Positions 23,586-62,461 are shown, counted from the first letter of the stretch. The stretch: DNA of 64,000 nt from a virus (IMGVR_UViG_3300028591_000072:238582-302581); one strand, 5' to 3'. The notes: a model not told the origin generated them from the letters alone. Numbers and translations are program-made.

Positions 23586-23634
23586 TATTCAAAAATAGTT
23601 TGTATATTTGTTGTATCAAAAGTTCTTTGAAAAT

Positions 23635-23705
23635 AGGCGGTTGGTGTAATGGTAACATAGAGGTCTCCAAAACCTTTGTTGAGGGTTCGAATCCTTCACC
23701 GCCTG
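23635..23705 (+). tRNA. tRNA-Trp(CCA)
   Basis: Full cloverleaf; gaggt-ctccaaa-acctt. Confidence 0.93.
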
Positions 23706-23713
23706 CAAATAAC

Positions 23714-23794
23714 GCTCGTTAGGTCGTATAGGGGATTAGTACACTATAAGCGGGACGCTAAGAAACACTGGTTCGAAACCAGTCCAAACGAGCA
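23714..23794 (+). ncRNA. tRNA-like RNA without a normal anticodon arm
   Basis: Extended acceptor gctcgttagg/ccaaacgagc, D arm, T arm actgg-ttcgaaa-ccagt; only agcg-gga-cgct in the anticodon region. Confidence 0.7.
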
Positions 23795-23799
23795 AAAAT

Positions 23800-23871
23800 G
23801 TTGATGTGGCCGAGTGGTTAGGTAATGCTCTGCAAAAGCATACGACATGGGTTCGAATCCCTTCATCAACT
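23800..23871 (+). tRNA. tRNA-Cys(GCA)
   Basis: atgct-ctgcaaa-agcat; U73. Confidence 0.93.
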
Positions 23872-23880
23872 CAAAAATAT

Positions 23881-23980
23881 GGAGGATGTGATGTAATGGT
23901 AGGCATAGCAGGGTAGACCTGTCGGGTGTAATAAATTGGCCATGAATAAGCCCGTGAAAGTTCGAATCTTTCCGCCTCCG
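23881..23980 (+). ncRNA. tRNA-Ser-like RNA with 5-nt anticodon loop and oversized variable arm
   Basis: ggagg/cctcc-g acceptor, gcagg-gtaga-cctgt, ~32-nt variable arm, intact T arm. Confidence 0.7.
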
Positions 23981-24001
23981 CAAAAAAAGTTCTTTGAAAA
24001 T

Positions 24002-24085
24002 GGGGTTGTAACCGGTAATTGGTAGCCGAAAGGTCTGTAAAACCTTTCCCTTTTGGGACTGGTGGTTCGAGTCCACCCAACCCCA
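24002..24085 (+). tRNA. tRNA-Tyr(GTA)
   Basis: aaggt-ctgtaaa-acctt; long variable arm. Confidence 0.92.
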
Positions 24086-24166
24086 CGAATGTTCAGGTAG
24101 CGCCTGACTGAGTGCAGTTATACATCACGGGGAATCTGCACGAGAAAAAAACAAAAGGTCCGTCAA

Positions 24167-24240
24167 CGGGGTGTGGTGCAGTTGGCTAGCACACGGCATT
24201 TGGGATGCTGAAGTCGTGGGTTCGAGTCCCGCCACTCCGA
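24167..24240 (+). tRNA. tRNA-Pro(TGG)
   Basis: cggca-tttggga-tgctg. Confidence 0.93.
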
Positions 24241-24295
24241 CTCAGGATGTCCACCGAGTAATGCAAGCATAGGTGGAAAATCGTCCTGAACGAAA

Positions 24296-24452
24296 GGTGC
24301 TCTGGCAGATATGGTATATGCACTGGACTGAATACAGAGTAAACTGTAAATCAAACTCTATAGTAATTCAGTTGGTAGAAACGTGAGTCGGTGGTTCGAG
24401 TCCGCCCTATAGAGCAAATCCAGCTAAAGTGGTTCGAGTCCACTGGGCACCA
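24296..24452 (+). tRNA. tRNA-Phe(GAA) interrupted by an 84-nt insert (24333-24416) containing a nested tRNA-like fold
   Basis: Removing 24333-24416 restores ctgga-ctgaaaa-tccag and a complete cloverleaf. Confidence 0.85.
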
Positions 24453-24543
24453 CAACTAAAATAACTAAATTGGTACAGATTAAAAAATAAAATTAAACGA
24501 CAATGATAAAACGAAAGTACATAAAACGAAAACATTTAAGTAG

Positions 24544-24616
24544 GCGCTCTTAGCTTAATTGGTAGAGCTACACACTCTTAATGTGGGGGTTGTGGGTTCG
24601 ATTCCCACAGGGCGCA
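24544..24616 (+). tRNA. tRNA-Lys(CTT)
   Basis: acaca-ctcttaa-tgtgg (27:43 mismatch). Confidence 0.9.
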
Positions 24617-24634
24617 CGAAAATAAAAACAAGAT

Positions 24635-24712
24635 GCGCTCGTAGCTCAGTTGGTAGATAGCACCACACTTTTAATGTGGGAGTCCTGGGTTCGAGTCCCA
24701 GCGGGCGCACCA
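24635..24712 (+). tRNA. tRNA-Lys(TTT)
   Basis: ccaca-cttttaa-tgtgg; encoded CCA. Confidence 0.93.
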
Positions 24713-24715
24713 AAA

Positions 24716-24787
24716 GCCCCAATGGTGTAACGGATAGCACTAAAGTCCACGGAACTTTTAGTGAGGGTTCAAATCCTTCTTGGGGTA
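24716..24787 (+). tRNA. tRNA-Arg(ACG) with C33
   Basis: aaagt-ccacgga-acttt. Confidence 0.85.
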
Positions 24788-24795
24788 CAAAAATC

Positions 24796-24812
24796 TGGCA
24801 CGGTTTTTGATA
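24796..24812 (+). promoter_or_regulatory. Sigma-54-like promoter followed by boxA-like gttctttgaaa
   Basis: TGGCACG-GTTT-TTGATA. Confidence 0.7.
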
Positions 24813-24844
24813 ATGTGCAATGGTTCTTTGAAAAAATGAAAAAA

Positions 24845-25371
24845 AATTCATTGTGCATAGGCGGGAAACCCCTATGTAGAATCTCCTAAATTCGGTGGAA
24901 ATCCTTTGGTGTGCTGGTTAAACTCCAGCCTTGTAGAAATACAAGAAGAGATTTGTCTGACTAGAAAGCACTAACCAATAATGTGTAAGGACTATACCGA
25001 GCGAAAATAAGATGTAAGGGTTGAATAAACAGGTCGGCACTTTAATATGTAGAACAGAAAGAGTGAATTACATCCACAGAAACTTACTATAAACTTATAA
25101 TCGTGTAGACTGAAATGGGAGATACCTAAGTTGATTTTAGCCTCATAGGAGTAATATTCGAGTAGGGAGTATAAACAGGCACTATGTCTGTCTCACTGAA
25201 AGAAGGCTATCTTGCAAGATTTCAATATGGTAATGTCAGTTAAGACTACAACAAGCATTTAGCTCCTTGGTTCGACTCCAAGGGATGCCTGTCACGTGTT
25301 GGAAAAGGTGTCATAAGTGGGTTCCACTTGTTTGGCTATGGTAACATAGTGTGGTAAATATCAATGTAATT
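24845..25371 (+). ncRNA. Exon-less group I intron-like RNA, copy 1
   Basis: P2, P3 (tctcc/ggaga), P4 (ttcggt/accgag), P5 (tcctt/aagga), P7 (gactg/cagtt), P8, P9.0 and P9 in canonical order; no interrupted host gene. Confidence 0.78.
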
Positions 25372-25378
25372 TATATAT

Positions 25379-25453
25379 GGCCCCGTAGCTCAATTGGATA
25401 GTAGCGACAGCCTTCTAAGCTGTAGGTTCTGGGTTCGACTCCCAGCGGGGTCA
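25379..25453 (+). tRNA. tRNA-Arg(TCT)
   Basis: acagc-cttctaa-gctgt. Confidence 0.93.
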
Positions 25454-25487
25454 CAAATTTAGTTCTTTGAAAAAATTGAAAAATACA

Positions 25488-26097
25488 AATTCATTGTGCA
25501 TAGGCGGGAAACCCCTATGTAGAATCTCCTAAATTCGGTGGAAATCCTTTACCTAGATATGAAAAGAAGTAGGAAAATTCATCCTAAGTTTCATTAATTT
25601 GAAATAGGTTCCGCAACACTAACAAATAATGTGTAAGGACTATACCGAGCGAAAATGAGAATAGAATGAAAAGCAAGTACAAGCAGAAGCAATTGCCTCC
25701 TTGTAGACTTCTTTATTTCTTTATATGATACTTATTGGTGGCAATTCGTAAGTATCATTTATTCTTATAAACGTGTAGAGACTGAACGGGAGATGCCTAA
25801 GTTGGAATTATATTAAGACGATGATAGCCCAGGATTCAAAAGAGCACCCATAATGAATGGGAGGTGGTTGGTATGAAATCCAACAATTCGTTGATAATAT
25901 TACTTGCAAGAATTTCAATATGGTAATGTCAGTCAAGACCACAATAAATAAACATACATGTCTAATGGTGAAGACAAGCGACTTGAAAAGAAAGGCTGAT
26001 GTCCGAGAGGAGACGCAAATGTGGCATTGATGTGGGTTCGATTCCCACTATGTTTGTTCGGCTATGGTAACATAGTGTGGTAAATATCAATGTAATT
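25488..26097 (+). ncRNA. Exon-less group I intron-like RNA, copy 2
   Basis: Same core blocks as copy 1 (64-nt and 45-nt identical ends), R-like gtagagactgaacgggag, different peripheral loops. Confidence 0.8.
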
Positions 26098-26105
26098 TAT
26101 ATATT

Positions 26106-26278
26106 ACTCCTATAGTTCAAGGGATAGAACGGAAGTTTCCTATACAAGAGTAAACTTGTTAAAATCAAAACTTCATGTTGGTGAAGATGGTCACACGTGC
26201 GTTAAAATGTCTACACGATGGTTCGAGTCCATCACATGAAGCAAACTTCTAATCTTGGTTCGAGTCCAAGTAGGAGTA
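26106..26278 (+). tRNA. tRNA-Arg(CCT) interrupted by a 101-nt insert (26143-26243) containing a nested tRNA-like fold
   Basis: Removing the insert restores gaagt-ttcctaa-acttc and a complete cloverleaf. Confidence 0.85.
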
Positions 26279-26305
26279 CAAAAAAAAATAACCAGATGAA
26301 AATTC

Positions 26306-26322
26306 TGGCACGGTCTTTGATA
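26306..26322 (+). promoter_or_regulatory. Sigma-54-like promoter
   Basis: TGGCACG-GTCT-TTGATA, 10 nt before a tRNA. Confidence 0.7.
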
Positions 26323-26332
26323 ATATTGCAAT

Positions 26333-26403
26333 GGTGATGTAGTCTAACGGTAGAACGGGGCTCTCATAAGGCCCATACGGAAGTTCAACTCTTCCCATCG
26401 CCA
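26333..26403 (+). tRNA. tRNA-Met or Ile2 (CAT)
   Basis: gggct-ctcataa-ggccc; identity not resolvable by eye. Confidence 0.85.
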
Positions 26404-26411
26404 CAAAACTT

Positions 26412-26428
26412 TGGCACGATTTTTGATA
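26412..26428 (+). promoter_or_regulatory. Sigma-54-like promoter
   Basis: TGGCACG-ATTT-TTGATA. Confidence 0.7.
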
Positions 26429-26518
26429 AGGAATGACTGCTGAGAAAAAATTTTGCAAAATATATTTGTTTTTTTCAAAAAAAAACTATATATTAGCAAC
26501 ATCAAAAGTTCTTTAAAA

Positions 26519-26637
26519 TAATGGTCAGGCAAGTCCAGGCAGCGTTTGGGTTGAGGTCGAAAAACTCCCCACCTTATATAGGTGTAATAATCCAGGTAGC
26601 TCAGACACAGAGATTAAAAAGGTGTTACTGACCATTA
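26519..26637 (+). ncRNA. Unknown end-paired structured RNA
   Basis: 10-bp terminal stem taatggtcag/ctgaccatta; flanked by two boxA-like sites. Confidence 0.6.
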
Positions 26638-26714
26638 AAGTTCTTTGACATATTGTGAAATCTGATAAAATACAAAAAATAAGGTTGTCTGTAGAGATAC
26701 ACACAACCTATTAC

Positions 26715-26802
26715 GGAGGGGTGCCGAAGTGGTCATAACGGCCTAGACTTGAAATCTTGTGTGCTCTTTACGGGCCCGTGGGTTCGAATCCCACCCCCTC
26801 CG
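26715..26802 (+). tRNA. tRNA-Ser(TGA)
   Basis: ctaga-cttgaaa-tcttg; long variable arm. Confidence 0.92.
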
Positions 26803-26819
26803 CAGTTGTAATTGAAATT

Positions 26820-26941
26820 TGGGATGTGGTGTAATGGTAGCACACGTAGCACTTTATGATTTCAGACACGGAATTTTACAGCAATTATTTTAGCGATGAA
26901 TTTGGGTTTCCGTGGTTTTGGTTCGATTCCAGACATCCCGA
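26820..26941 (+). ncRNA. tRNA-Pro(TGG) body with a 51-nt CAGCAA-handle insert (26847-26897)
   Basis: Removing the insert restores cggaa-tttgggt-ttccg; insert holds gatttc-agacac-ggaatt-ttacagcaa. Confidence 0.75.
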
Positions 26942-26951
26942 CTAATATGAT

Positions 26952-27035
26952 GGCCAAGTGTCGTAATTGGTAACCGAGCTGGTCTCAAAAACCAGTGGGC
27001 GAAAGCCCGTGTGGGTTCGAGTCCCACCTTGGCTA
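26952..27035 (+). tRNA. tRNA-Leu(CAA)
   Basis: ctggt-ctcaaaa-accag. Confidence 0.93.
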
Positions 27036-27077
27036 CAATGGTTAAAAACCAAATAATAATTAAATTAAAAATAAATT

Positions 27078-27692
27078 ATGAAGAGAATTTTATCAGTATT
27101 AATGATTGCTTTGATGGCAATTTCTTTGACATCTTGCGATTGGTTTAAAAAGAAAAACGACAATAAGAAAGAGATTGTTGTTGAAAATTTGGTTTCGGAA
27201 GATACCAAGTACATGGTAGAAAATTATGACACATGTTTTGTTTATTACGAGACACAAATTGTTTTAAATAACTATCTTGATGAGGAATGTGATGGTTCAT
27301 TTGAAAGTGTAACAAATATATTCCAAGGATATACACTTGTTGATAGCACGTTCCAACCTACAGTAGTTATTTTTGAACACATTGGAGATTCGTCAAGCAT
27401 TGAAAAGGTTAATGATGCATGGATGGAAGATATGGTAATGAAAAAAAATGACATTGCCATTTCATATAAGGATGCATTCAAATGTATGAACGAAGTAAAT
27501 TATCCAAAACCACACGCAAAGGCTTGTACTTTGAGAAAAGAAGTAGGACCTTGCCAAGCAAACGCCCAATATATTTTTGGTAACGTTGAATCACAATTGT
27601 ATGTTGATGCAATAACAGGCGATGTTTCACCAAATAGTCCAACATTCAGTTGTCTTGGCGCTGAAGAAAATGTTGAAGAAGTGGTCGAATAA
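27078..27692 (+). CDS. Lipoprotein
   Basis: Signal peptide with lipobox SLTSC; C-terminal LYVDAITGDV (PepSY-like). Confidence 0.8.
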   Translation: MKRILSVLMIALMAISLTSCDWFKKKNDNKKEIVVENLVSEDTKYMVENYDTCFVYYETQIVLNNYLDEECDGSFESVTNIFQGYTLVDSTFQPTVVIFEHIGDSSSIEKVNDAWMEDMVMKKNDIAISYKDAFKCMNEVNYPKPHAKACTLRKEVGPCQANAQYIFGNVESQLYVDAITGDVSPNSPTFSCLGAEENVEEVVE

Positions 27693-27711
27693 TGATTAAG
27701 AAATAAAAGTA

Positions 27712-27779
27712 GAAAACCTAACAGCAATTTTTAGTAAAAAATCAGAACTTTCACTTCCGACAATAACTAATGGTTTTCG
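27712..27779 (+). ncRNA. CAGCAA-handle RNA carrying a tRNA-Glu(TTC)-type anticodon stem-loop
   Basis: gaaaacc-taacagcaa ... tcagaa-ctttcac-ttccga ... ggttttc-g. Confidence 0.75.
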
Positions 27780-27846
27780 TTTTTAATAAAAGGTGACACT
27801 TTTAGGATTTTTTGCACACCGATAGACAAGGTAAAAATCCAAGTAA

Positions 27847-27999
27847 GCCTCTTTAGTATAAAGGTTATTACACTTGACTTGTACATCAGAAGGAACTGAT
27901 TAAAACCAAGCTATATTTGAAAGACAAAGCATATGCTGAAACAGCGATAGTTTCATATAGCTCAATCATGAGATGGCAGTTCGATTCTGCCAAGAGGCT
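27847..27999 (+). tRNA. tRNA-Thr(TGT) interrupted by an 81-nt insert (27884-27964) with tRNA-like geometry
   Basis: Removing the insert restores cttga-cttgtaa-tcatg; acceptor gcctctt/aagaggc. Confidence 0.8.
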
Positions 28000-28001
28000 C
28001 T

Positions 28002-28118
28002 AAAATCTTCGAGGGATTGATGCTTGGTTTAGTGTTTTGGTTACCTGACGAGGTAAACTGAGACAATAATAAGGAGTAAGAAGGAAGCATGCACTTGGCT
28101 TACTGTGTAGAAGATTTT
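28002..28118 (+). ncRNA. Unknown end-paired structured RNA
   Basis: aaaatcttc/gaagatttt; internal ttacct-gacg-aggtaa. Confidence 0.55.
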
Positions 28119-28123
28119 TTAAT

Positions 28124-28195
28124 GCGTTGTTAGTACAACGGTCAGTATATGGGCTTCCCAAGCCTAAGATGTCAGTTCGATTCTGATACAGCGCT
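28124..28195 (+). tRNA. tRNA-Gly(CCC)
   Basis: tgggc-ttcccaa-gccta. Confidence 0.92.
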
Positions 28196-28200
28196 CAAAT

Positions 28201-28344
28201 ACGGTGCGTAGTTTACGATATGGGTTTGACACGAACTGGAAGCATGGGCATCAGAGCCGTGCACGAAAGAGAATCAGGAGTGAAGCCTGACTAAACAACT
28301 ATATCAAAGAATGGTACGAAGACCTGGTGACAAGAACTCACCGT
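28201..28344 (+). ncRNA. Unknown end-paired structured RNA
   Basis: acggtg/caccgt; internal gcatgg/ccgtgc and tcagg/cctga. Confidence 0.55.
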
Positions 28345-28387
28345 TACTTGTTAAAAAAGGACCTCATCAGTAGTATCATTTAGATTT

Positions 28388-28469
28388 ACCTCAGTACCCG
28401 AACTGGTATAGGGACTACACTTAGGATGTAGCGGCTGAGCCACTGTGGGTTCGACTCCCACCTGGGGTA
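28388..28469 (+). tRNA. tRNA-Leu(TAG)
   Basis: ctaca-cttagga-tgtag. Confidence 0.92.
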
Positions 28470-28624
28470 CAAAAATAAATGGGTGAAGCTTTGTTATTGA
28501 AGCCATGGATTTTACCGTGAGAAGACGAATGTCCGCCCAAAAACACAGAGGAACTTGCCAAATTGATACTGTACAGCTTTTGGTAATAAGGATAAGTAGA
28601 CTCAGAAGGTTATATTCCTTATAT

Positions 28625-28696
28625 GCGGTGTTAGTACAACGGTTAGTATATCAGCTTGCCATGCTGAAGATGTCAGTTCGATTCTGATACACCGCT
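28625..28696 (+). tRNA. tRNA-Gly(GCC)
   Basis: tcagc-ttgccat-gctga. Confidence 0.93.
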
Positions 28697-28698
28697 CA

Positions 28699-28786
28699 AG
28701 GAAACATGCAGCAATCTTTCTCAGGTTGAAAATTTTGACTGTAAATCAAATAAGGTGGTTCGAGTCCACAAAAATATTGTTTCCTG
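28699..28786 (+). ncRNA. CAGCAA-handle RNA carrying a Tyr(GTA) anticodon stem-loop and a T arm
   Basis: aggaaac-atgcagcaa ... tttga-ctgtaaa-tcaaa, gtgg-ttcgagt-ccac ... gtttcct-g. Confidence 0.78.
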
Positions 28787-28793
28787 TTTTTAT

Positions 28794-28867
28794 GGGAGAG
28801 TAGCGTAGCTGGTTAGCGCAACGGACTGTTAATCCGTGGGTCGTGGGTTCGATTCCCACCTCTCCCG
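28794..28867 (+). tRNA. tRNA-Asn(GTT)
   Basis: acgga-ctgttaa-tccgt. Confidence 0.92.
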
Positions 28868-28872
28868 CTTGA

Positions 28873-29005
28873 AGAAATCTAACAGCAATTAATAAATTCG
28901 TTTGACTGTAAATCAAAAGGTTGTGGGTTCGAGTCCCGCTGTCGCCAAAGATTATATTAGTTGAAGGCGACATAGCTCAATGGTAGAGAAAGAAAATGAT
29001 TTCTG
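28873..29005 (+). ncRNA. CAGCAA-handle RNA enclosing a circularly permuted tRNA-Tyr(GTA)
   Basis: 3' part (28899-28947) precedes 5' part (28966-28988); acceptor ggcgaca/tgtcgcc; handle agaaatc-taacagcaa ... gatttct-g. Confidence 0.85.
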
Positions 29006-29035
29006 AGAAAAACAATGACGCTTAACCGTCAGAAC

Positions 29036-29188
29036 ATGTTTCTAAATTCATTAAAGATTTAGCGCACTTGTAGAGCGATAGGACTACACCTAAACCGAGG
29101 TGAGTGGTGAAGTACCGAGGAAGCTTTATTTGAAAGGTTACGAGCTCTTAAACAGATGATGGCATAGTTAAGAAGGTGCCATAAACAT
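29036..29188 (+). ncRNA. Unknown multi-hairpin RNA
   Basis: atgttt/aaacat closing stem; cacct/aggtg, atggcat/gtgccat, ctaaatt/gatttag. Confidence 0.5.
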
Positions 29189-29201
29189 TTCTTTTTAATA
29201 T

Positions 29202-29274
29202 GGGGGTATGGTTGAATGGCTACAATGCGGGCTTGTCACGCCCTGTGGTGCGGGTTCGAATCCCGTTATCCCCG
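29202..29274 (+). tRNA. tRNA-Asp(GTC)
   Basis: gggc-ttgtcac-gccc; G73. Confidence 0.9.
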
Positions 29275-29353
29275 CAATATTGGGGTTTCGAAAAAAAACG
29301 ATAAAATTGCGTATAATTTGGCTTTCGAAACTATTTATAATAAAACAAAGTTT

Positions 29354-30073
29354 ATGTGTGATGGTTTAAATTTTAAATGTAAACAGTGTGGCGTAACATT
29401 TGAAAAAACAAAGTCTGAGTTATCAAAAAACCATAATGTTGTTCCTGTCTTTTGTTCTAAAGACTGTCAACAAAAATGGTATAAAGAAAATTCGTATATA
29501 ACTGTAGAATGCAAATGTTGTGGAAAAGAATTTACAATAAAAAAAGGTGAATACAATAAAAATAAAAACAAAAACTTTTTTTGTTCACATTCTTGTGCTG
29601 CTAAATTTAATAATAAAACTAGAACAATAAAAAAAACTGTTTTTGAAAAAGATAACAAAATTAAAATATCTAAAAAGAAAGAAGATATATATGGTGTATG
29701 TCCAATTTGCGGAAATAAAAAATTTAAGAAATCAATATTGTGCAAAAAATGTAGAAACGAGCAAAAAAGAAATAACATAAAAAAGAGAACACTTGGATAT
29801 TTTATTGAAGGAAAAAAATATTTGGGTTCAAAATGTAATGAAATAAGAAAAGACGCAAAGAGAACAATTGAAGAAAGCTGTGTCGAAAAAACTTGTGCAT
29901 ATTGTCATAACCACGAGTTTGATGGCATATTAGAAGTACATCATATAAAAGGAATTTTGGAGTTTGATAAAAGCACGACAATAGAAGAAATAAATGATAT
30001 TAATAACCTTGTTTGGTTATGTCCAAATCATCACAGGATGCTTGAACTTGGATTAATTAAACTTGAAAAATAG
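29354..30073 (+). CDS. HNH homing endonuclease with zinc-finger repeats
   Basis: CxxC...FCS..C repeats; LEVHHI...NLVWLCPNHH; start moved to 29354 because the longer frame overlaps tRNA-Asp and ACTATTTAT lies at 29330. Confidence 0.85.
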   Translation: MCDGLNFKCKQCGVTFEKTKSELSKNHNVVPVFCSKDCQQKWYKENSYITVECKCCGKEFTIKKGEYNKNKNKNFFCSHSCAAKFNNKTRTIKKTVFEKDNKIKISKKKEDIYGVCPICGNKKFKKSILCKKCRNEQKRNNIKKRTLGYFIEGKKYLGSKCNEIRKDAKRTIEESCVEKTCAYCHNHEFDGILEVHHIKGILEFDKSTTIEEINDINNLVWLCPNHHRMLELGLIKLEK

Positions 30074-30079
30074 ATTAAA

Positions 30080-30209
30080 AGGAATTTAACAGCAAGTTAC
30101 AATAGGTAAACACATTTGTAAACAAAACAAAGATTGTTGGTTCGAGTCCAACTGCGGCTTTAGGGGAACCGATGGCTGCATAGTGAAATGGAAGATAAAT
30201 AGATTCCTG
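30080..30209 (+). ncRNA. CAGCAA-handle RNA with permuted T arm / closed acceptor stem / degenerate D arm (YrlA-like order)
   Basis: aggaatt-taacagcaa ... gttgg-ttcgagt-ccaac, tgcggct...ggctgca, tagtgaaatgg ... gattcct-g. Confidence 0.75.
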
Positions 30210-30338
30210 TAATCTAAAAAATATAAGGAAAGAAGGACACACGTACCTTAAACAAGTACGAAAAGTTAGTGCTGGCCACATAAAGTCGCCAAGCGTCTCA
30301 GGGTGGATGCACGATAGTGAAATGTAAATTTCTTAGAT

Positions 30339-30411
30339 GGGGAGTTCATTTAGCGGTTTAGGATGCAGGTTCGACAGACCTGTCACTATGGTTCGATTCC
30401 ATAACACCCCA
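30339..30411 (+). tRNA. Atypical tRNA, nominal Val(GAC), with C33 and G38
   Basis: caggt-tcgacag-acctg; one acceptor mismatch; body resembles Glu/Gln/Asp-type tRNAs. Confidence 0.6.
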
Positions 30412-30415
30412 CAAT

Positions 30416-30650
30416 CGGTTTGTTGTTGATAATCAAAGGAAAGTTGAGTTGGACATGGGTTCGAGTCCCATATGGTCCACTAAGTAATTGATTTTCAAGT
30501 AAATACGGGCCATCTTGGTTTTGACAGCTAATGAGTACAATGGAAGTAGACATCCGAGATGCCATAAAATAACTGGCAACGAAAATTATGCTTATGCTTA
30601 TGCAGCAGCCTAAGGCAGTGCATTGAGCAGGTTGGCAGCGAACCAAATCG
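30416..30650 (+). ncRNA. ssrA: Circularly permuted (two-piece) tmRNA
   Basis: Acceptor piece gac-atggg-ttcgagt-cccat-atggtcc-a ends at 30479, before the coding piece gggccat-cttggttttgacag at 30507; G3:U70; tag ataact-GNENYAYAYAAA* (30575-30613). Confidence 0.9.
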
Positions 30651-30658
30651 CTGCACAT

Positions 30659-30734
30659 GGTCGGTTCGTCTAGTCTGGCCTAGGACATCAGGTTTTCATC
30701 CTGGGAATCATGGGTTCAAATCCCATACCGACTA
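30659..30734 (+). tRNA. tRNA-Glu(TTC)
   Basis: tcagg-ttttcat-cctgg. Confidence 0.92.
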
Positions 30735-30740
30735 CATCCA

Positions 30741-30945
30741 GATAACTACAAATCTGCATTGGCAAAGTTGCTTTCCATAACAATGTGCAACCAGTTTCAG
30801 CGTTTCAACTGTAAAAATGCGAGATTTTTATTTGTTTGGCTAAACGAAAACAAATCCTTATAGTTGGTATATTGGTAAAAAAGGCGGAATGGTAGATAAC
30901 CGTTTTTATCCAACATTTATGGCGATTCATGATGTAGCCATAAAA
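30741..30945 (+). ncRNA. Unknown multi-hairpin RNA(s)
   Basis: gttgc/gcaac, cagtt/aactg, atttgtt/aacaaat, aaaggcgg/ccgttttt, tttatggc/gccataaa. Confidence 0.5.
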
Positions 30946-30946
30946 T

Positions 30947-31020
30947 CGGCCTGTAGCTCAGTTGGTTAGAGCATCACACTGATAATGTGGGGGTCGGTGG
31001 TTCGAGTCCACCCTGGCCGA
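30947..31020 (+). tRNA. tRNA-Ile(GAT)
   Basis: tcaca-ctgataa-tgtgg. Confidence 0.93.
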
Positions 31021-31077
31021 CAAAATTTACAAATTTATTTGTTCTTTTAAAAAATAGTTTGTATATTTAAAATAAAG

Positions 31078-31210
31078 AAAGTAAAAATCCCACCAAGGGC
31101 GAAACAATTGGTGGTTAGTTCTATCCCGTTAGTAATCACGGTCACAAGGTAGGAGATAAAGAACTGTAAGAGGCTCAGAAGTCGGATGACAAGAAACGAT
31201 AGTTCACTTT
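31078..31210 (+). ncRNA. Unknown structured RNA
   Basis: aaagt/acttt ends; ccaccaa/ttggtgg, agttct/agaact; follows a tttgtatattt promoter-like motif. Confidence 0.5.
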
Positions 31211-31216
31211 CTAAAT

Positions 31217-31290
31217 GGGCCCATGCCTTCAATTGGTACAGGACCGCCTTTGCACGGCGACATTTATCGGTTCGAATCCGATTGGGTCCA
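31217..31290 (+). tRNA. tRNA-Ala(TGC)
   Basis: cgcc-tttgcac-ggcg; G3:U70. Confidence 0.9.
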
Positions 31291-31309
31291 CATCTTTATT
31301 ATTATTATA

Positions 31310-31455
31310 ATATGAAGATGGTAGCGCCACAACGTAACGTAATTGGTCCCTGATGTTCTTCAAACCAATTCCCTATCGTAGTTAGGGTAAAGTCTTTACA
31401 CGAGTTTCTATAATACGAAAGCCAAAATGTACAGTTTATGTCGGAAGAAACTCTT
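31310..31455 (+). ncRNA. Unknown multi-hairpin RNA
   Basis: aattggt/accaatt, cccta/taggg, gagtttct/agaaactc. Confidence 0.45.
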
Positions 31456-31461
31456 TATAAT

Positions 31462-31586
31462 GCCAAGGTAGCTCAGTGGTTTAGAGCAATGGGAGTGTAT
31501 AAATGATTTTTGATTAAAAATCTAACAGCAACTTCCAAATACCTATGTAAACCCATTGGTCGGAGGTTCGAATCCTTCTCTTGGCT
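31462..31586 (+). ncRNA. tRNA body (Thr-like acceptor, loop remnant tgtaaa) with the CAGCAA handle inserted in the anticodon loop
   Basis: Intact acceptor, D and T arms; atggg/cccat stem encloses gattttt-gatt-aaaaatc-taacagcaa. Confidence 0.78.
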
Positions 31587-31594
31587 CAAAAAAT

Positions 31595-31671
31595 GCATGT
31601 ATGAAAGCAGACGGGATGTGCTTCTGTCGTAATTCGGACAGGATATGTTGGTTCGAATCCAACTGCATGCG
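31595..31671 (+). ncRNA. tRNA-like RNA with 8-nt non-canonical anticodon loop
   Basis: gcatgta/tgcatgc, 5-bp D stem aagca/tgctt, ctgtc-gtaattcg-gacag, canonical T arm. Confidence 0.7.
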
Positions 31672-31676
31672 CAATA

Positions 31677-31751
31677 GGAAAACATACAGCAAGTTTTATC
31701 AAATTCAAGTTACAATCTTTTAAATTGTGGGACTAAATTTTTTGTTTTCCG
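31677..31751 (+). ncRNA. CAGCAA-handle RNA carrying a tRNA-Lys(TTT) anticodon stem-loop
   Basis: ggaaaac-atacagcaa ... acaat-cttttaa-attgt ... gttttcc-g. Confidence 0.8.
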
Positions 31752-31756
31752 TTTAT

Positions 31757-31838
31757 GGGGAAGTGGTGGAACTGGTAGACACGTATGCCCAAGGAGCATA
31801 TGCCGAAAGGCGTGTGGGTTCAACTCCCACCTTCCCTA
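31757..31838 (+). tRNA. tRNA-Leu(AAG) with C33
   Basis: tatgc-ccaagga-gcata; Leu-type D loop and variable arm. Confidence 0.82.
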
Positions 31839-31846
31839 CTTAAAAT

Positions 31847-31917
31847 GCCTTGTTAGTTTAGTGGTAGAATGATACCCTCGTAAAGTATAGACGATGGTTC
31901 GATTCCATCACTTGGCT
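31847..31917 (+). tRNA. tRNA-Thr(CGT)
   Basis: atacc-ctcgtaa-agtat; two U:U mismatches in acceptor stem. Confidence 0.75.
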
Positions 31918-31949
31918 CAATATTTTTAAAAGAAAAAATTATATTAATT

Positions 31950-32189
31950 ATGAAGAAATTATTTTTAACAATTGCTTTTGTTTTTGCATTGCTTACGGGC
32001 TGTTTTGCACAAAGTGGTGATGTATTATTCCAAAAAGAAACGGTTATTTATGAAAGTAATGAAAAGTTTGGTCCTGGACTTCCAGGACATGGACAAAGTG
32101 GTAATCAGTCAGCACCTATTGGTGCCGGAACTGTCTTGCTGATTGGCTTTGGTGCTGCTTATGCAATGTACAAGAAAAACAAAAAGTAA
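31950..32189 (+). CDS. Small exported protein with C-terminal sorting-signal-like anchor
   Basis: Signal peptide, Gly/Pro linker, APIGAG + TM + KKNKK, resembling Bacteroidetes PID-CTERM/PEP-CTERM-type tails. Confidence 0.7.
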   Translation: MKKLFLTIAFVFALLTGCFAQSGDVLFQKETVIYESNEKFGPGLPGHGQSGNQSAPIGAGTVLLIGFGAAYAMYKKNKK

Positions 32190-32215
32190 AAAAACTCAAT
32201 ACTAACGAGTATAAA

Positions 32216-32461
32216 GACAGGCGTACAGCCAGAGGCGTAAACGGTAGCAGTAAGTGCTAAACTGTTAAAATAAAGGCAATAAGGGAGAGGTAACGTTACT
32301 CCTTAAAACTAGCGAATTTCAAGTAGATTCATGGATTATCGAAAGGCTTTAGAAATGTTAAGGAAAAAGACCTTATGCCAGCGAATGAGAACCACATCGG
32401 TTATGTGGCGCACGATGAAACGTGTGGGCTGAAAAAGTGCCAGGGTTCAACTCCACTTGTC
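32216..32461 (+). ncRNA. Unknown ~245-nt structured RNA
   Basis: gacagg/cttgtc ends; T-loop-like ggttcaactcc near the 3' end; ccacat/atgtgg, taagg/cctta, cacg/cgtg. Confidence 0.55.
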
Positions 32462-32482
32462 ATTTTAGGAAATCCATTTTAC

Positions 32483-32557
32483 GGTGTATATAGTGTCAGT
32501 GGTCTAGCACGGTAGATTGTGATTCTACAAGCCTCAGTTCGAACCTGAGTATACACC
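32483..32557 (+). tRNA. tRNA-His(GTG)
   Basis: G-1:C73; gtaga-ttgtgat-tctac. Confidence 0.93.
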
Positions 32558-32615
32558 CGCTAATTTCGACTTTACTTTTTCACCCTTTTTACTATTTATG
32601 TATAAAAGTGGTTTT

Positions 32616-33290
32616 ATGAAAGAAAAAGAAATAGATAAAATAAGCGTGGAACAAATAAACGAAGCTTTTGAAAAGTGTGGTAATCTTAAAGAAGTTGTTT
32701 TTTATTTTGGAAAAAAATACAATGGCGGAAGTCAACGATTTGTATATGCTTTAATGGAAAAAGCCGGAATAAAGTATTCTGATTTTTTCAAAAAAGGGAA
32801 AGAGTATTATAAAAAAAATGTAAAGTATTGTGAAAATTGTGGAAAAGAATTGCCATATGAAAAAAGGAATAATAAATTTTGTTCTTCTTCTTGTGCAGCA
32901 TCTAAAAACAATCTTGGGGTAAGAAGAAACTTTAATCCAAATAAACCAATAATACAAACAAAAGAAGAAAAAGAAAGACTGAAGTTGGAAAGATGGAAGA
33001 ATGGAGAAAATTTTTTAGTTGGCTCTTGTGAAATACCAGTTTTTATAAGAAGATATTTGTTCAGTAAAAACGAATGTAAATGTGAGCGATGTGGGTGGGG
33101 TGAAATAAATGAGGACACAGGAAAAATTCCGTTGCAAATACATCACATAGATGGTGATTGCACAAACAACAAAGAAGAAAATTTACAACTACTTTGTCCA
33201 AATTGTCATAGTTTGACTAACACATTTGGTTCGTTGAACAAAAAGTCAAAAAGATTCCATAGAAAAAAGAAAACTTTAAAAGATATATAG
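32616..33290 (+). CDS. HNH homing endonuclease
   Basis: CENCG...FCSSSC; CERCG...LQIHHIDGD..NN..ENLQLLCPNCHS; start 32616 preferred because the 32598 ATG overlaps the promoter motif. Confidence 0.88.
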   Translation: MKEKEIDKISVEQINEAFEKCGNLKEVVFYFGKKYNGGSQRFVYALMEKAGIKYSDFFKKGKEYYKKNVKYCENCGKELPYEKRNNKFCSSSCAASKNNLGVRRNFNPNKPIIQTKEEKERLKLERWKNGENFLVGSCEIPVFIRRYLFSKNECKCERCGWGEINEDTGKIPLQIHHIDGDCTNNKEENLQLLCPNCHSLTNTFGSLNKKSKRFHRKKKTLKDI

Positions 33291-33516
33291 CAAGTACAGA
33301 CCACTTAGTAGCGTCCAGGGTAAGTCATAGAAGTATCAGCTGTATGTCTATGGCGTAGTCACGGGATTCAAAGCAATCTCACAGCCTGGTGAACGGTGTC
33401 AGTTACCGTGAGGTGCTGTAAGGTGCAACGCAACAGAAGAATAAAATCTAAAATAGATAATGCAATCCTCGTTTAGCCGAGGTTTCTTTAGTCCGTAGCT
33501 CGTAAATTTACTTGCT
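33289..33516 (+). ncRNA. Unknown ~228-nt structured RNA
   Basis: agcaagta/tacttgct ends; gtcataga/tctatggc, acagc/gctgt enclosing acggt/accgt, cctcg/cgagg. Confidence 0.6.
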
Positions 33517-33522
33517 TTTTAT

Positions 33523-33608
33523 GGAGGGATACCCAAGTTGGTGAAGGGGACAGATTGCTAATCTGTTAGGCCTTTATAGGCGCATGGGTTCGAGTCCCAT
33601 TCCCTCCG
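33523..33608 (+). tRNA. tRNA-Ser(GCT)
   Basis: acaga-ttgctaa-tctgt; long variable arm. Confidence 0.93.
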
Positions 33609-33876: not shown

Positions 33877-34812
33877 ATGTCAAATAATAAATTAAAGCAG
33901 CGTTTTGTAAAAGATTACAATCTTCCAATCAATGTGTTTGATGAAGAATTGTTTAATTATTATATGAATTTGTATCATTTTTTTCCTAAGGAAAAGTGGG
34001 AAAATTTGAAAAAAGACATACAAGACAAATATCGTGGGAATGTTGAAGTATGGCTTGAGTATTGCGCTGAAGTTAGGGATAAGGCCATTAATGGCGTTAT
34101 GGAAACTCAAGAATATAAAGAGTTCAACAACAGTGATTTATCAAAATATAAATTAACGAAAAATATTGGAGAGCATAGTTATTATACCAATGAAACAAAT
34201 GGGTGCAGGTTTGTGTCAATTGATTTGAAGAAGGCAAATTTCCAAGCCCTTAAATACGTTGGTGTTATCGGCGATAAGACATATGGTGATTTTATTGAGC
34301 GTTTTGATGGAAGCGATTACATTAAAGACAGCAAATATTTGAGACAGGTGATTTTTGGTAAGATGAATCCTGGCAGAATTATTACCATAGAAAAATATAT
34401 TATGGAAAAAATAATGTCAATTGCCGATGAGGTTTTACCTCCTGAGTTTAAATTATATTCTCAAAACAGCGATGAACTTGTATATAAACAGACAGGAAGT
34501 TTTTATGGTGACATAAGAATTATATGCGCTGTTATTGAAAAAATGGTTCTTGATAATTTTGGTGTTGAGGTACGTGCTGAATATGTTGAGGTTACAAAAC
34601 TTCCAATTGTTAATTGCAATGGTAATAATGTTGATGCTTTTGTCCGTAAGAACATTAATACGGGAGAAGAGGTTCTGAAAAAGGCATCAACAACATTTTA
34701 TCCGCAGATTTACAAATTATGGAAAGGAATGGAAATTGAAGATAGAGACCTTGTTTTCTATTTCGAGGACCAATTATGTAGATTTAATAATCCTTTAAAA
34801 TTGATTGAATAA
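33877..34812 (+). CDS. Hypothetical protein with polymerase-palm-like motifs
   Basis: FVSIDLKKANF and NSDELVY; function is speculative. Confidence 0.6.
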   Translation: MSNNKLKQRFVKDYNLPINVFDEELFNYYMNLYHFFPKEKWENLKKDIQDKYRGNVEVWLEYCAEVRDKAINGVMETQEYKEFNNSDLSKYKLTKNIGEHSYYTNETNGCRFVSIDLKKANFQALKYVGVIGDKTYGDFIERFDGSDYIKDSKYLRQVIFGKMNPGRIITIEKYIMEKIMSIADEVLPPEFKLYSQNSDELVYKQTGSFYGDIRIICAVIEKMVLDNFGVEVRAEYVEVTKLPIVNCNGNNVDAFVRKNINTGEEVLKKASTTFYPQIYKLWKGMEIEDRDLVFYFEDQLCRFNNPLKLIE

Positions 34813-35543
34813 TGAAAATAATTGCGAGTAGTGACTTTCATGGGCGTATGCCTGAAATAAAAGAGCCTTTTGACTTATTTTTGATATGTGGGGATATTTG
34901 TCCTGTGGAATGCCACGGAAAAAAATTCCAAGAAGATTGGCTTCAAAATGATTTTATTGAATGGGTTAATGGATTACCGTTTAAGACACCTTGGAGCAAA
35001 GTTGTTATGACTTGGGGAAATCATGATTTTTATGGCGAAAAATGTTCTGAAGATGATATGTTTATGCTTGAAAGACTAACAAATTTCAGGCTTAGAATAT
35101 TGAGGCATAATTCATATGAATTTGAGTTTCCTGTTAGTGATGGCATTGATTCTTTGAAAATTTTCGGAACGCCTTATTGCGGACAATTCGGAAGATGGGC
35201 ATTTATGGATGATGATGAGACACTTCGTCACCTTTTTACTGAAATACCAGATGATACTGATATTTTAATTAGTCACGATAGTCCAAACGTTTATGGGCTT
35301 GGAGATATTACACAAGGATATTGGAAACAATCAGGAACAGGAAACAGGGTTCTTTATGACCATGTATTGAGAGTGCGCCCTAAATTGTTTGTGTGTGGAC
35401 ATTTTCATAGTGGAAACCATCAATTGCAAAACATTGATGGAATATATATGGCAAATGTTTCATATATTAACGAAGATTATGAGCCATTTTGGGATGTTTT
35501 AACTATTTATTATGATGAAGAAGCAAGAAAAATAATTGAATAA
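34812..35543 (+). CDS. Calcineurin-like metallophosphoesterase
   Basis: SDFHG, CGD, GNHD, ISHDSP, CGHFH. Confidence 0.9.
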   Translation: MKIIASSDFHGRMPEIKEPFDLFLICGDICPVECHGKKFQEDWLQNDFIEWVNGLPFKTPWSKVVMTWGNHDFYGEKCSEDDMFMLERLTNFRLRILRHNSYEFEFPVSDGIDSLKIFGTPYCGQFGRWAFMDDDETLRHLFTEIPDDTDILISHDSPNVYGLGDITQGYWKQSGTGNRVLYDHVLRVRPKLFVCGHFHSGNHQLQNIDGIYMANVSYINEDYEPFWDVLTIYYDEEARKIIE

Positions 35544-35553
35544 AAAGAATAAT

Positions 35554-36681
35554 ATGGGAAAAGATTTTTTACTTGAAGTCAAGTCATTAATTAATAGAAT
35601 TGAAAATACAGAAACAATAAACGAAACAAAAGTTGGATTCAGGTTTATAGACAAAGCTGAAAATCTTCCTGATTTACTTGCCGGTCTAAAACCAGGCAAA
35701 ATGTTCACTTTTGGATACGTTAATGTGGCCCAAATTGTTGTACCAACAGTAAAAAGAAGAAATCCTGAAACAAATAGGATGAAATCATATGAAGATTACG
35801 CCCAACTTGGCAAAAATTTGGGAGAAGAAGGCGAAGTGGTAAATGTAATTAAATTATCAATGTATAATTTCCCATGGCAGGAACAAAACCGTGTAAAACA
35901 AAGATATTCAGATTGGAGGACTAAAAGGGATGAACTTGCAGGAAGATTTGGCGTTACATATGGAAAAGCAAGATATGGAACTGAAATGAATAATTTCGGT
36001 GGTGGTATAGAAAGTTACAAAGGAAATAATCCAGAACTTTCAGACCACACATATTTGAATTTCAATCTTCATAACATACGCCCATTTAATACTGCCTATT
36101 ATTTGCTTTTTGATGATGGTACAATTAAGCAAGTTGATGAAAAGAAATTGGAATTTAAAGCAAAAAATTCTTATGATGAACTTCAAAAATTAAGAGATGC
36201 CGGAGCAACAGAAGCGGATTTGGTATGCCTTATTGGTATGAATTATCATAAATTTGAAAATTCAAAGATTTTGTTCGTATCAGGAACTGAAATGGATGGT
36301 GTCCCAACACTTTTAATTAATGACAATTTATCTGATAAAATAAGCGGAATAGCTGGTGTAAATCGTGATGCAATTGTTCAAATTGCCAAAGATAGATATT
36401 CAAAAGTGCTTAATGTTCAAGAGGGAAAAGACATTATTTTCAATGAATTAATAAATGAAAACGAAGAATTTATTCCTCAAGGATATAAAGCAGATAGTAA
36501 TTTTGGGGGAAAAGAAATTCAAATAAGCAATAGTGGCGATGCTGCAAGAATTAGAACAAATTATAGCGGACAGCCAGATGAGCCTTCTGAATGGATGGAA
36601 ATACAATTCGATGATGAAGGCGTTGCATATGTGGATACGCCAAACGGTATTGAGAAGTTATCTGATTATATGAAATATTAA
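35554..36681 (+). CDS. Hypothetical protein, possible internal head protein
   Basis: Long ORF with LLE/INE sites; ACTATTTAT at 35502. Confidence 0.7.
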   Translation: MGKDFLLEVKSLINRIENTETINETKVGFRFIDKAENLPDLLAGLKPGKMFTFGYVNVAQIVVPTVKRRNPETNRMKSYEDYAQLGKNLGEEGEVVNVIKLSMYNFPWQEQNRVKQRYSDWRTKRDELAGRFGVTYGKARYGTEMNNFGGGIESYKGNNPELSDHTYLNFNLHNIRPFNTAYYLLFDDGTIKQVDEKKLEFKAKNSYDELQKLRDAGATEADLVCLIGMNYHKFENSKILFVSGTEMDGVPTLLINDNLSDKISGIAGVNRDAIVQIAKDRYSKVLNVQEGKDIIFNELINENEEFIPQGYKADSNFGGKEIQISNSGDAARIRTNYSGQPDEPSEWMEIQFDDEGVAYVDTPNGIEKLSDYMKY

Positions 36682-53831: not shown

Positions 53832-54701
53832 TTATTTTTCAACTACATTGATATAATGTTCGTTTTCTTCTTTTTTGCATCTATCAAGTAATTGCTCGTA
53901 ATTGAATTCTTTGGATTTGTTTTTTGATGATTTAACAAACACCAAAAACATTGAAGTATAACTTCGTGAATGGATTTGTCCTGATTTGTATTTACCAGGT
54001 GAAATTAATCTTGCCTTTGCAAGTAACGTAAACTTATCAATCATTTTAAGTCCAAGTCTTTGAGCTGCCATAAAACTAAATTCTTCAACATTGTGCCTAA
54101 TTCCACCTGAAATCATGGATTGGCATTTGAAAATGCAAATTCCATTATCTTTAAGAACACGACTTGCTTCTGATAACCAATGATAATAAGATAAATACAA
54201 GTTATCAACAGGATAATATGCAGAAAAACGTTTATAAATCAAGCTTGCGCCTTCTTTGTTTGATTTTGCAGATGGTGCATTTTGTGGAGAAATTACAAAC
54301 GGTAGGTCAATAACCAATGAATGTATTGAATTATTTTCAATTGGCAATGCCCCCCATTTTTGGATTTCAATAATATCGTCTCTTGTTGGGCAAACATCCA
54401 TAAGGATTTTGGGTTCAGGAATGCTATAAGCATATCCATGACCTTTGTTATAGAATCCAAGAGAACTTGCAGTCATATCAGCATCAAATTGGTCTGAGCC
54501 ATTGTTATATAGCATCCCAATGTTATGGAGAATTTCTGTTTGGTCATATGAGAAATTTTTGATAATATTTGAATTATTCAATTTTTTCTCGTAATTTTCT
54601 TTATTTCCAATAATGATATTATCATCCATTGAGATTTCTTCATCAAAAAGAGGCTCATCATAGAGTTCTTCATTAAATTCAAGTTTAAATTGTTCATTCA
54701 T
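53832..54701 (-). CDS. Putative DNA amino-methyltransferase
   Basis: DADMTAS.LGFY, SLVIDLPF (DPPF variant), EASRVLKDNGICIFKCQ. Confidence 0.72.
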   Translation of the reverse strand: MNEQFKLEFNEELYDEPLFDEEISMDDNIIIGNKENYEKKLNNSNIIKNFSYDQTEILHNIGMLYNNGSDQFDADMTASSLGFYNKGHGYAYSIPEPKILMDVCPTRDDIIEIQKWGALPIENNSIHSLVIDLPFVISPQNAPSAKSNKEGASLIYKRFSAYYPVDNLYLSYYHWLSEASRVLKDNGICIFKCQSMISGGIRHNVEEFSFMAAQRLGLKMIDKFTLLAKARLISPGKYKSGQIHSRSYTSMFLVFVKSSKNKSKEFNYEQLLDRCKKEENEHYINVVEK

Positions 54702-61896: not shown

Positions 61897-62461
61897 CTCT
61901 GTATTTTTTAAGTTCTTCTTTATATTCCACATCAAAAAAATGTCTCATTTTTGGGCATCTTCCATTATAGCATATTTCGCAATCGTGATGCCATCCTGAA
62001 GGAAGTGATGTCAAAGGAACTTTTTCTGTGCAAGAATTGCATGGATTATGCTCTTCGACCCATTTATCAAATGGTTTCATTCTTTCGATTTCTTGCTTTA
62101 TTCTTTCTTCTCTTTCGTCATTTTCCTTTATTATTCTTTCTCTTGTCTCCGCATTAAGTATGTGCTTTGGCGCAACACCCCACCATTTGCTTTCAAAGTG
62201 AAGATTCTTGAGGTCTAAGTTTCTTGTTTCGTCAGACGGTGCATTAATATAATCGCCATACTCAGTCATATATGAAATGATTTCGTATATATGAAACATA
62301 AGCCCCTCACTATCAATTTGCTCATATACTTCGCCATCTTTATTTTCAGCATGTACATCATACATTGGCTCACTATAGCCTACATTTGTTACTTCGATTT
62401 TTATGTTTCTATCATACCCGAATGAACACAATAAAAGGGTCAAAACATCTTTTCCGCTCAT
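61886..62461 (-). CDS. Hypothetical protein with Cys-rich C-terminus
   Basis: 191-aa ORF in operon. Confidence 0.65.
   Translation of the reverse strand: MSGKDVLTLLLCSFGYDRNIKIEVTNVGYSEPMYDVHAENKDGEVYEQIDSEGLMFHIYEIISYMTEYGDYINAPSDETRNLDLKNLHFESKWWGVAPKHILNAETRERIIKENDEREERIKQEIERMKPFDKWVEEHNPCNSCTEKVPLTSLPSGWHHDCEICYNGRCPKMRHFFDVEYKEELKKYRDGK

Follow-up and report, generated by a model that had tools for sequence, protein, structure and literature searches.

The stretch of DNA analysed here (the window) is the final 64 kb of a linear record of 302,581 bases from a jumbo phage (IMGVR_UViG_3300028591_000072:238582-302581; 32 % G+C, genetic code 11), which is 82 % complete and best represented in sheep gut runs. 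The window contains a long tRNA array, at ca. 23,600–33,600, in which the genes for tRNA-Phe(GAA), tRNA-Arg(CCT) and tRNA-Thr(TGT) are each split within the anticodon loop by an insert containing a tRNA-like domain. The parts of the three split genes are as follows (G and L numbers are our handles for the records and loci compared):

24296–24331, + strand: tRNA-Phe(GAA) exon 1, positions 1–35; intron-less allele in L632 and L641
24332–24415, + strand: Phe intron, 84 nucleotides (nt), at 35/36; leader 24332–24355 (A-U-A, hairpin, linker), stem 24356–24363 with 24407–24414, T arm 24390–24406, final C 24415
24416–24452, + strand: tRNA-Phe exon 2, positions 36–73; genomic C74 comes next
26106–26141, + strand: tRNA-Arg(CCT) exon 1, positions 1–36; intron-less allele L634:18445
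26142–26242, + strand: Arg intron, 101 nt, at 36/37; leader 26142–26170, stem 26171–26178 with 26234–26241, T arm 26217–26233, final C 26242
26243–26278, + strand: tRNA-Arg(CCT) exon 2, positions 37–73
27847–27882, + strand: tRNA-Thr(TGT) exon 1, positions 1–36; intron-less syntenic gene in G004
27883–27963, + strand: Thr intron, 81 nt, at 36/37; leader 27883–27908, stem 27909–27916 with 27955–27962, T-like arm 27938–27954, final C 27963; identical intron in L634 with altered exons
27964–27999, + strand: tRNA-Thr(TGT) exon 2, positions 37–73

Removal of the inserts in silico leaves clean tRNA-Phe(GAA), -Arg(CCT) and -Thr(TGT) of 72–73 nt, as identified by ARAGORN, and no intact gene for any of the three was found in the whole record (82 % complete). 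All three split genes are identical in an ENA assembly, and those for Arg and Thr also in a JGI assembly; additionally, DNA contigs span the Phe and Thr genes and nearly the whole Arg gene. A preliminary description of this DNA, made from the sequence alone, had noted the inserts and that these are the only genes for the three tRNAs in the window, and both points are borne out. The fold of each insert has a hairpin and an A-rich linker, then an 8-bp stem that stacks on a T arm, with pair probabilities in the stem mostly of at least 0.9 (0.45–0.98 for the innermost pair) and folding z-scores of −3.1, −1.2 and −2.3 for the three inserts. The Arg payload scores 31.9 bits as an Rfam tRNA; in that of Thr, contrary to the preliminary description, the T loop is non-standard and the D arm weak. 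Apart from that tRNA match, an Rfam search with E values up to 5 identified no intron or ribozyme, so no existing intron family was matched.

Related inserts were gathered by pattern scans, from relatives found via a neighbouring gene and from whole records. Loose DNA patterns gave mostly chance matches, and only loci confirmed by a detector were used; this required at least seven of the eight stem pairs, so that decayed copies would be missed. The resulting family has 42 distinct members of 65–141 nt, in 12 tRNA types at 16 sites, all sharing one layout: N-(U)-A, a short hairpin, an A-rich linker, an 8-bp stem, a T arm and a final C. The acceptor-like stem is paired in 335 of 336 cells, with 34 different stem sequences, whereas 5000 shuffles gave a mean of 180 and a maximum of 223; even with a statistic somewhat inflated by the relatedness of the members, this indicates that the inserts did not arise by chance. 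The T stem is paired in 205 of 210 cells, and the outermost pair of the acceptor-like stem is formed in every member, in five pair types. A family-built model (R1) found only the three inserts of the window as strong matches in the genome; since this model is sequence-only, covariation was counted on structure-anchored positions instead.

The two ends of the inserts are equally regular. The last base is C in 42/42, directly after the 8-bp stem and never able to extend it. At the 5′ junction, position +3 is always A, +2 is U in 40 of the 42 members (the Thr intron of the window, with C, and that in L649 lack it), +1 is A or U in 40, and −2 is a purine in 29. A hairpin of 3–6 bp begins at +4 in all members, with a conserved loop, mostly A-R-N-N-A-A, and the leader measures 23–33 nt. 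What follows the leader is far more variable: some payloads are near-complete tRNAs and the simplest, in L013, is a 41-nt minihelix, so the lack of an anticodon arm noted in the preliminary description is not a family rule, and the smallest member (65 nt) consists only of hairpin and minihelix. The leaders at L496:3746–3823, L646:19279–19386, L647:15882–15955, L648:20680–20760 and L649:20390–20491 form a divergent subtype, whose loops contain pyrimidines and differ in length from the others; these loci include one insertion at 33/34 and one in an initiator tRNA-Met.

Insertions occur at 33/34, 35/36 or 36/37, and the exon bases at the junctions vary (A, U, C or G before; A, U or G after), so the signals must lie inside the intron. 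The exact junctions are fixed by an intron-less tRNA-Asn(GTT) gene in G005 having the same exons as a Lak-A1 gene annotated as tRNA-Tyr: this allele allows one register only, in which the intron starts at the A preceding the first insert base of the preliminary description and ends at the C following the stem. The same register gives G37 in tRNA-Pro, a purine at 37 in the Lak tRNA-Thr and anticodons consistent with the discriminator throughout. In this single, intron-defined register, the spliced loop has seven bases and the anticodon agrees with the tRNA body in 42/42 members, even where the third anticodon base sits in exon 2 (Asn, Tyr, Phe, fMet and Lys). The junctions first placed at 36/37 or 37/38 thus move one base to the left, to 35/36, 36/37 and 36/37, and the inserts end in C, not in CA; the earlier register yields the same spliced sequence in the window, yet fails across the family. 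The view that the structure of the insert itself sets the junctions is supported. The insertions in Asn, Thr, Pro and Ala, at the two Phe sites and at Tyr 35/36 follow a purine at a distance of two bases, but those at Tyr 36/37 and in fMet do not, and this rule was set aside as weak. Standard annotation misses these genes or labels their payloads as tRNAs. In cellular genomes, a strict pattern gave no match and a looser one 36 matches, none of them a member (Asn/Tyr/Phe-type leader covered). No free-standing leader-plus-tRNA unit was found, and hence no direct progenitor.

The inserts are optional, exchange their payloads and move between tRNA genes. The Phe exons are identical in L638, which has the intron, and in L632, which does not; Arg-CCT lacks it in L634 and G004, and Thr-TGT in G004. 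At the Phe site the leader is identical at five loci, with inserts of 84, 117 or 126 nt overall (a payload swap), and one phage has in its Arg-CCT gene a 121-nt intron that recurs, with two bases changed, in the Trp gene of another. Between intron-bearing orthologues there are paired exon changes across the insert: a U-A pair of the Phe anticodon stem is replaced by C-G, and another such change affects the Thr acceptor stem while the intron remained identical. These changes point to continued selection, as judged from sequence, on the tRNA fold of the split genes. Two HNH endonuclease genes are also situated within the array (29216–30073 and 32598–33290, + strand), and are possible drivers of gene conversion carrying introns between strains.

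By their sequence, the three inserts belong to a published family. Introns in tRNAs of Lak megaphages were reported, as "enigmatic", by Devoto et al. (2019; PMC6784885, Fig. 4 and Table S6), who noted a possible tRNA within the Thr intron and found its predicted junction to be off by one base. All four Lak introns of their Table S6 follow the grammar of the window inserts, with the same leader (the Lak and window Phe introns share hairpin and linker), 8-bp stem, T arm and final C; furthermore, they are of similar size (79–141 nt), lie in the anticodon loop, are present or absent between strains and occur in overlapping host tRNAs (Phe, Thr). The top BLAST match of the Phe insert is Lak-A1 (E = 2e-3). 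The preliminary description had proposed a candidate new class of intron, which is not supported, since the Lak inserts, already published, have nearly identical leaders. The published account differs from ours in that a nested tRNA was noted only in the Thr intron, with neither a shared grammar nor a mechanism. A survey from 2026 (PMC13037316) devotes one sentence to introns that could encode another tRNA, and we found no description of the leader, the shared ends or the mechanism in the literature searched, of which coverage was incomplete. To the Lak introns, unexplained since 2019, we thus add the shared grammar, the exact junctions, a link to C74 and candidate enzymes for each step. Additionally, the Lak "tRNA-Tyr(GTA)" introns of Table S6 (L228:30042–30134, − strand, in Lak-A1) lie in tRNA-Asn(GTT), as indicated by a short variable loop, by G73 and by an allele in which the intron is missing and the exons are identical (G005:32959–33030). 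The lineage studied here is distinct from Lak, with ca. 35 % identity over 40 shared proteins. We infer a Bacteroidota host because of promoter-like TAnnTTTG elements upstream of groups of tRNA genes (at 23603 and 26461), tRNA gene ends as in Prevotella and an insert family in common with the Prevotella Lak phages.

The 3′ junction of the inserts has a counterpart in ordinary tRNA genes. In the window array and in G001–G006, 131 of 136 phage tRNA genes, including 30/30 in this genome, end with the discriminator plus C74, without CCA, and the same holds for 27/27 genes sampled from Prevotella sp. MGM2 (loci L593–L622). Of the CCA, then, C74 alone is encoded in nearly all of these genes, which suggests a lineage-wide Bacteroidota processing in which the 3′ end is cut after C74 and CA is then added. 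In all 42 inserts the junction follows the first unpaired base after T arm and acceptor stem. This final C would therefore be C74 of the nested pre-tRNA, with its base −1 pairing with base 73, and the 3′ junction falls where an ordinary pre-tRNA would be trimmed if the host RNase Z cuts after C74. Both RNase Z and RNase Y are present in Prevotella. Chloroplast tRNase Z cuts after C74 (PMC3161902), and for the mammalian enzyme the cut follows the first unpaired base of substrates whose acceptor and T stems together are longer than 11 bp (PMC9141469); the two readings give one and the same site.

The 5′ junction, situated 23–33 bases before the stem, is beyond the reach of RNase P acting on the nested domain, which rules out this enzyme alone for the cut. 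Instead, the sequence around it resembles an RNase E/G-type site set by the downstream hairpin. RNase E prefers RN↓WUU (arrow, cut), with U at +2 most critical, and cuts 4–5 bases before a stem-loop, its cut position being set with a second helix close by (10.1101/341578). The fit is partial: the bases at +1, +2 and −2 conform in the proportions given above, but A is invariant at +3 and three bases precede the hairpin. A control search showed that Bacteroides has RNase E/G. RNase Y is less likely, as its preference is for a purine immediately 5′ of the cut (PMC11321564) and 30 of the 42 members have a pyrimidine there. An integrase scar was also discarded, because the nested 3′ half pairs with the 5′ strand of the insert itself and not with exon 1. 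Neither RNase Z-like nor RNase E/G genes nor RNase P RNA were found in five phage records, including the complete G005; EndA-type nucleases (PF01974) were likewise missing from these records and from bacterial control genomes. Proteins common to G011 and Lak G005 include no evident RNase, and a few of them lack annotation.

RNase Z and RNase E/G leave 3′-OH and 5′-phosphate ends, which suit an ATP-dependent ligase and not RtcB. Ligases of family PF09414 are encoded in all three complete intron-bearing genomes (G005, Lak-A1 and G011), and inside the tRNA array of G001 and G003, whereas RtcB was found in one of nine records; Bacteroides has RtcB (control search). A second candidate for tRNA repair or joining is a Thg1-like protein, present in the same three complete genomes (G011:43750–44604 in one of them) and in G001; the Thg1 enzyme family adenylylates 5′-phosphates. 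The G011 ligase gene is situated in a region of poor conservation, which by synteny corresponds to the gap between the two ends of the present record, so the ligase region of this phage may fall in the missing part. A motif scan (KxDG/KxNG) of G000 and G004 gave no credible ligase, and the open reading frames (ORFs) 33877–34812 and 35536–36681 were rejected as ligases for want of a family match. The phages also share a metallophosphoesterase and an RlaP-type nucleotidyltransferase (54694–55908, − strand, in the window); this protein and a second one with a nucleotidyltransferase domain, shared with Lak (G000:74026–75357, + strand), are possible parts of an RNA repair kit.

Fixed ends, optional presence, a free position in the loop and a conserved structure are thus established directly. 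We propose, with a probability of about 0.55, that the inserts are mobile, protein-spliced tRNA introns, cut by host RNases and sealed by a phage ligase; a tRNA mimic recruiting tRNA-processing nucleases and a ligase, as first suggested, remains the best reading. Initially, the nested domain would present a tRNA elbow and an acceptor stem ending in N73-C74, like a Bacteroidota pre-tRNA, and host RNase Z would cut after that C, leaving a 5′-phosphate on exon 2. The leader would guide a hydrolytic endonuclease, most likely RNase E/G of the host, to a cut three bases before the hairpin, leaving a 3′-OH on exon 1, while RNase P may cut at the boundary of linker and stem, freeing the 5′ end needed by RNase Z at no loss to the exons. 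The exons, held together by the stems of the host tRNA itself, could then be sealed by the phage ATP-dependent RNA ligase without end-healing. Finally, the excised RNA would have ligatable ends, and its ligation into an opened anticodon loop would restore the two cut sites; reverse transcription or recombination would be required to fix the insert in DNA. We consider the 3′ cut by RNase Z the best supported of these steps and the enzyme of the 5′ cut less sure, while the spread by re-ligation is speculative. The stricter formulation, of a portable cassette made of an RNase E/G-type 5′ site and an RNase Z 3′ site that fits anywhere in an anticodon loop, is excised by the host and is sealed only with the phage ligase, is tentative, with odds a little below even. 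If true, the supply of mature tRNA would depend on infection, the cassette could spread by re-ligation, and tRNA splicing in bacterial cells would need neither a ribozyme nor a splicing endonuclease; a further prediction is cleavage after C74 by the RNase Z of Bacteroidota.

Several observations weigh against this proposal. No RNA ligase, RtcB or Thg1 was detectable in the 302-kb record (82 % complete), where the preliminary description had suggested that a ligase be sought, nor was T4 Rnl1, in a search without positive control; ligase presence was, moreover, counted in intron-bearing genomes only. The invariant A at +3 and the conserved loop are more sequence-specific than RNase E needs, and the most critical base for this enzyme, U at +2, is missing from the two members indicated above. 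RNase Z of B. subtilis is suppressed by a C after the discriminator (PMC7479834), and mammalian tRNase Z is inhibited by long 5′ leaders (PMC9141469), so that some prior 5′ cut, perhaps by RNase P, would be required. Splicing may be dispensable, as several relatives possess another Phe gene that is intact. The strain is present in two metatranscriptome runs from a single sheep sample, of which the contigs cover the unspliced Phe and Thr genes at depths of 16–34, like nearby coding regions, which could reflect precursor or DNA; there was no spliced junction among the RNA contig matches listed, from libraries not enriched for mature tRNA. One contig of run X21 starts exactly at Arg exon 2 (26243); there is no matched DNA for the strain, and intron-less Arg genes exist as DNA (run X1).

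The strong conservation of the leader at a given site, while payloads are swapped, could also indicate a dedicated phage endonuclease of unrecognised type that reads the invariant A and purine-rich loop of the leader, and possibly the elbow, and makes one or both of the cuts, with cyclic-phosphate and 5′-OH ends to be joined by host RtcB or by a phosphatase, kinase and ligase. The RtcB of Bacteroides and the metallophosphoesterase and RlaP-type protein of the phages would agree with this, but the phage records contain none of the nucleases sought, save for what the few unannotated proteins common to G011 and G005 may hide, and a private enzyme would not need the C74 signature of the host; we regard this alternative as unlikely. 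Somewhat less probable still is that the inserts are spliced hardly or not at all, being selfish or neutral elements that inactivate dispensable tRNAs, or, unspliced, decoys with two elbows for tRNA-cutting defences of the host. Phage tRNAs can be dispensable, relatives have second, intact Phe genes, no spliced form was observed and the array contains other tRNA mimics. Nevertheless, a single register restores the 7-base loop and a matching anticodon in all members, with G37 in Pro, the exons show compensatory changes, and a decoy would not need single-base precision.

Small ribozymes (theta ribozymes) are known from tRNA arrays of gut phages and, together with the invariant A at +3 and the conserved loop, would favour catalysis by RNA, either with the leader as a tiny self-cleaving element or with self-splicing of the whole insert, the tRNA-like domain being a scaffold or a handle for RNase Z. 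This is improbable, because the smallest member is no more than a hairpin and a minihelix, linker and loop vary in length and sequence, and there is no terminal G, group II start, pseudoknot or Rfam ribozyme match. Repeats in tRNA arrays can confuse assembly; even so, an assembly artefact or a chance nesting of tRNA pieces is hardly credible, given identical independent assemblies, 42 members with one grammar and their publication in curated Lak genomes. We therefore keep splicing by host RNases and a phage ligase as our preferred explanation.

The first assertion that these inserts fit neither group I nor bulge-helix-bulge introns agrees with comparisons to known systems. Archaeal and eukaryotic tRNA introns (removed by EndA/TSEN and joined by RtcB or Trl1) are also short, without ORFs and in the anticodon loop, and removal by proteins would be common to both; archaeal tRNA introns also move between tRNA genes. 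However, none of the 42 inserts has the 4-bp central helix of the bulge-helix-bulge (at most three of four pairs, mostly 0–2) or lies at 37/38, their signals are wholly within the intron and the phages have no EndA. Group I introns of bacterial and phage tRNAs, usually longer than 200 nt, are likewise mobile and inserted in anticodon loops of bacterial-type genes, but the Lak-type inserts, of 65–141 nt, lack the catalytic core, a terminal G (0/42) and an Rfam match; similarly, none begins with the GUGYG of group II introns, which Rfam did not match either. A functional comparison can be made with mascRNA and menRNA of MALAT1 and NEAT1, in which a tRNA mimic without a proper anticodon arm directs tRNA-processing nucleases within a longer RNA. 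The nested domain of the inserts would work alike, but these RNAs are eukaryotic, have no leader hairpin, and the cuts make ends without rejoining. In T4, Pnkp and Rnl1 repair tRNA-Lys cut by PrrC, so that a phage ligase seals an opened anticodon loop after the necessary end-healing; this is damage repair, in contrast with the programmed cuts proposed here, and the ligases in question belong to PF09414 (DRB0094/Rnl2-like) and not to Rnl1. A nested tRNA mimic in the anticodon loop is also present in two leader-less inserts (L329:1077–1192 and L245:4972–5121, + strand), the former a minihelix in tRNA-Lys ending in N73-C74 and the latter a complete tRNA-Phe inside tRNA-Arg. In these, unlike in the Lak-type inserts, the stem directly follows exon 1, and RNase P could suffice for the 5′ cut.

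The array contains other tRNA-like elements. Two stand-alone mimics (23714–23790 and 23880–23981, + strand), with an acceptor-like stem and a T arm and no normal anticodon arm, are conserved in G004. Two related non-coding elements of ca. 550–600 nt (24820–25378 and 25460–26104, + strand) have core motifs similar to those of group I introns and, close to the 3′ end, a tRNA-like domain, without evident exons or an Rfam intron match; they have 89 bases in common at 95.5 %, similar ones occur in L112, and their RNA contig depth reaches thousands, versus ca. 20 nearby (summed over related sequences). Two tRNA-shaped genes (26821–26942 and 31462–31587, + strand) carry ca. 50–58 extra bases in the anticodon arm with the motif ACAGCAA, unlike the three inserts studied; we presume a possible relation to theta ribozymes. 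The motif (A/G)CAGCAA also occurs within the closing stem of free-standing elements at 27712–27780, 28700–28785, 28872–28960, 30080–30165 and 31675–31752 (+ strand), several of them with an anticodon-like arm and a T arm, for which Rfam gave only one weak tRNA match. The window also encodes ClpP, DnaK and a permuted two-piece transfer-messenger RNA, Rfam RF04321, whose tag ends in YAYAAA, together with a CCA-adding-type enzyme:

30357–30657, + strand: permuted two-piece transfer-messenger RNA
62458–63774, − strand: tRNA nucleotidyltransferase (CCA-adding type), with a CCA enzyme as top match, under the curated cut-off

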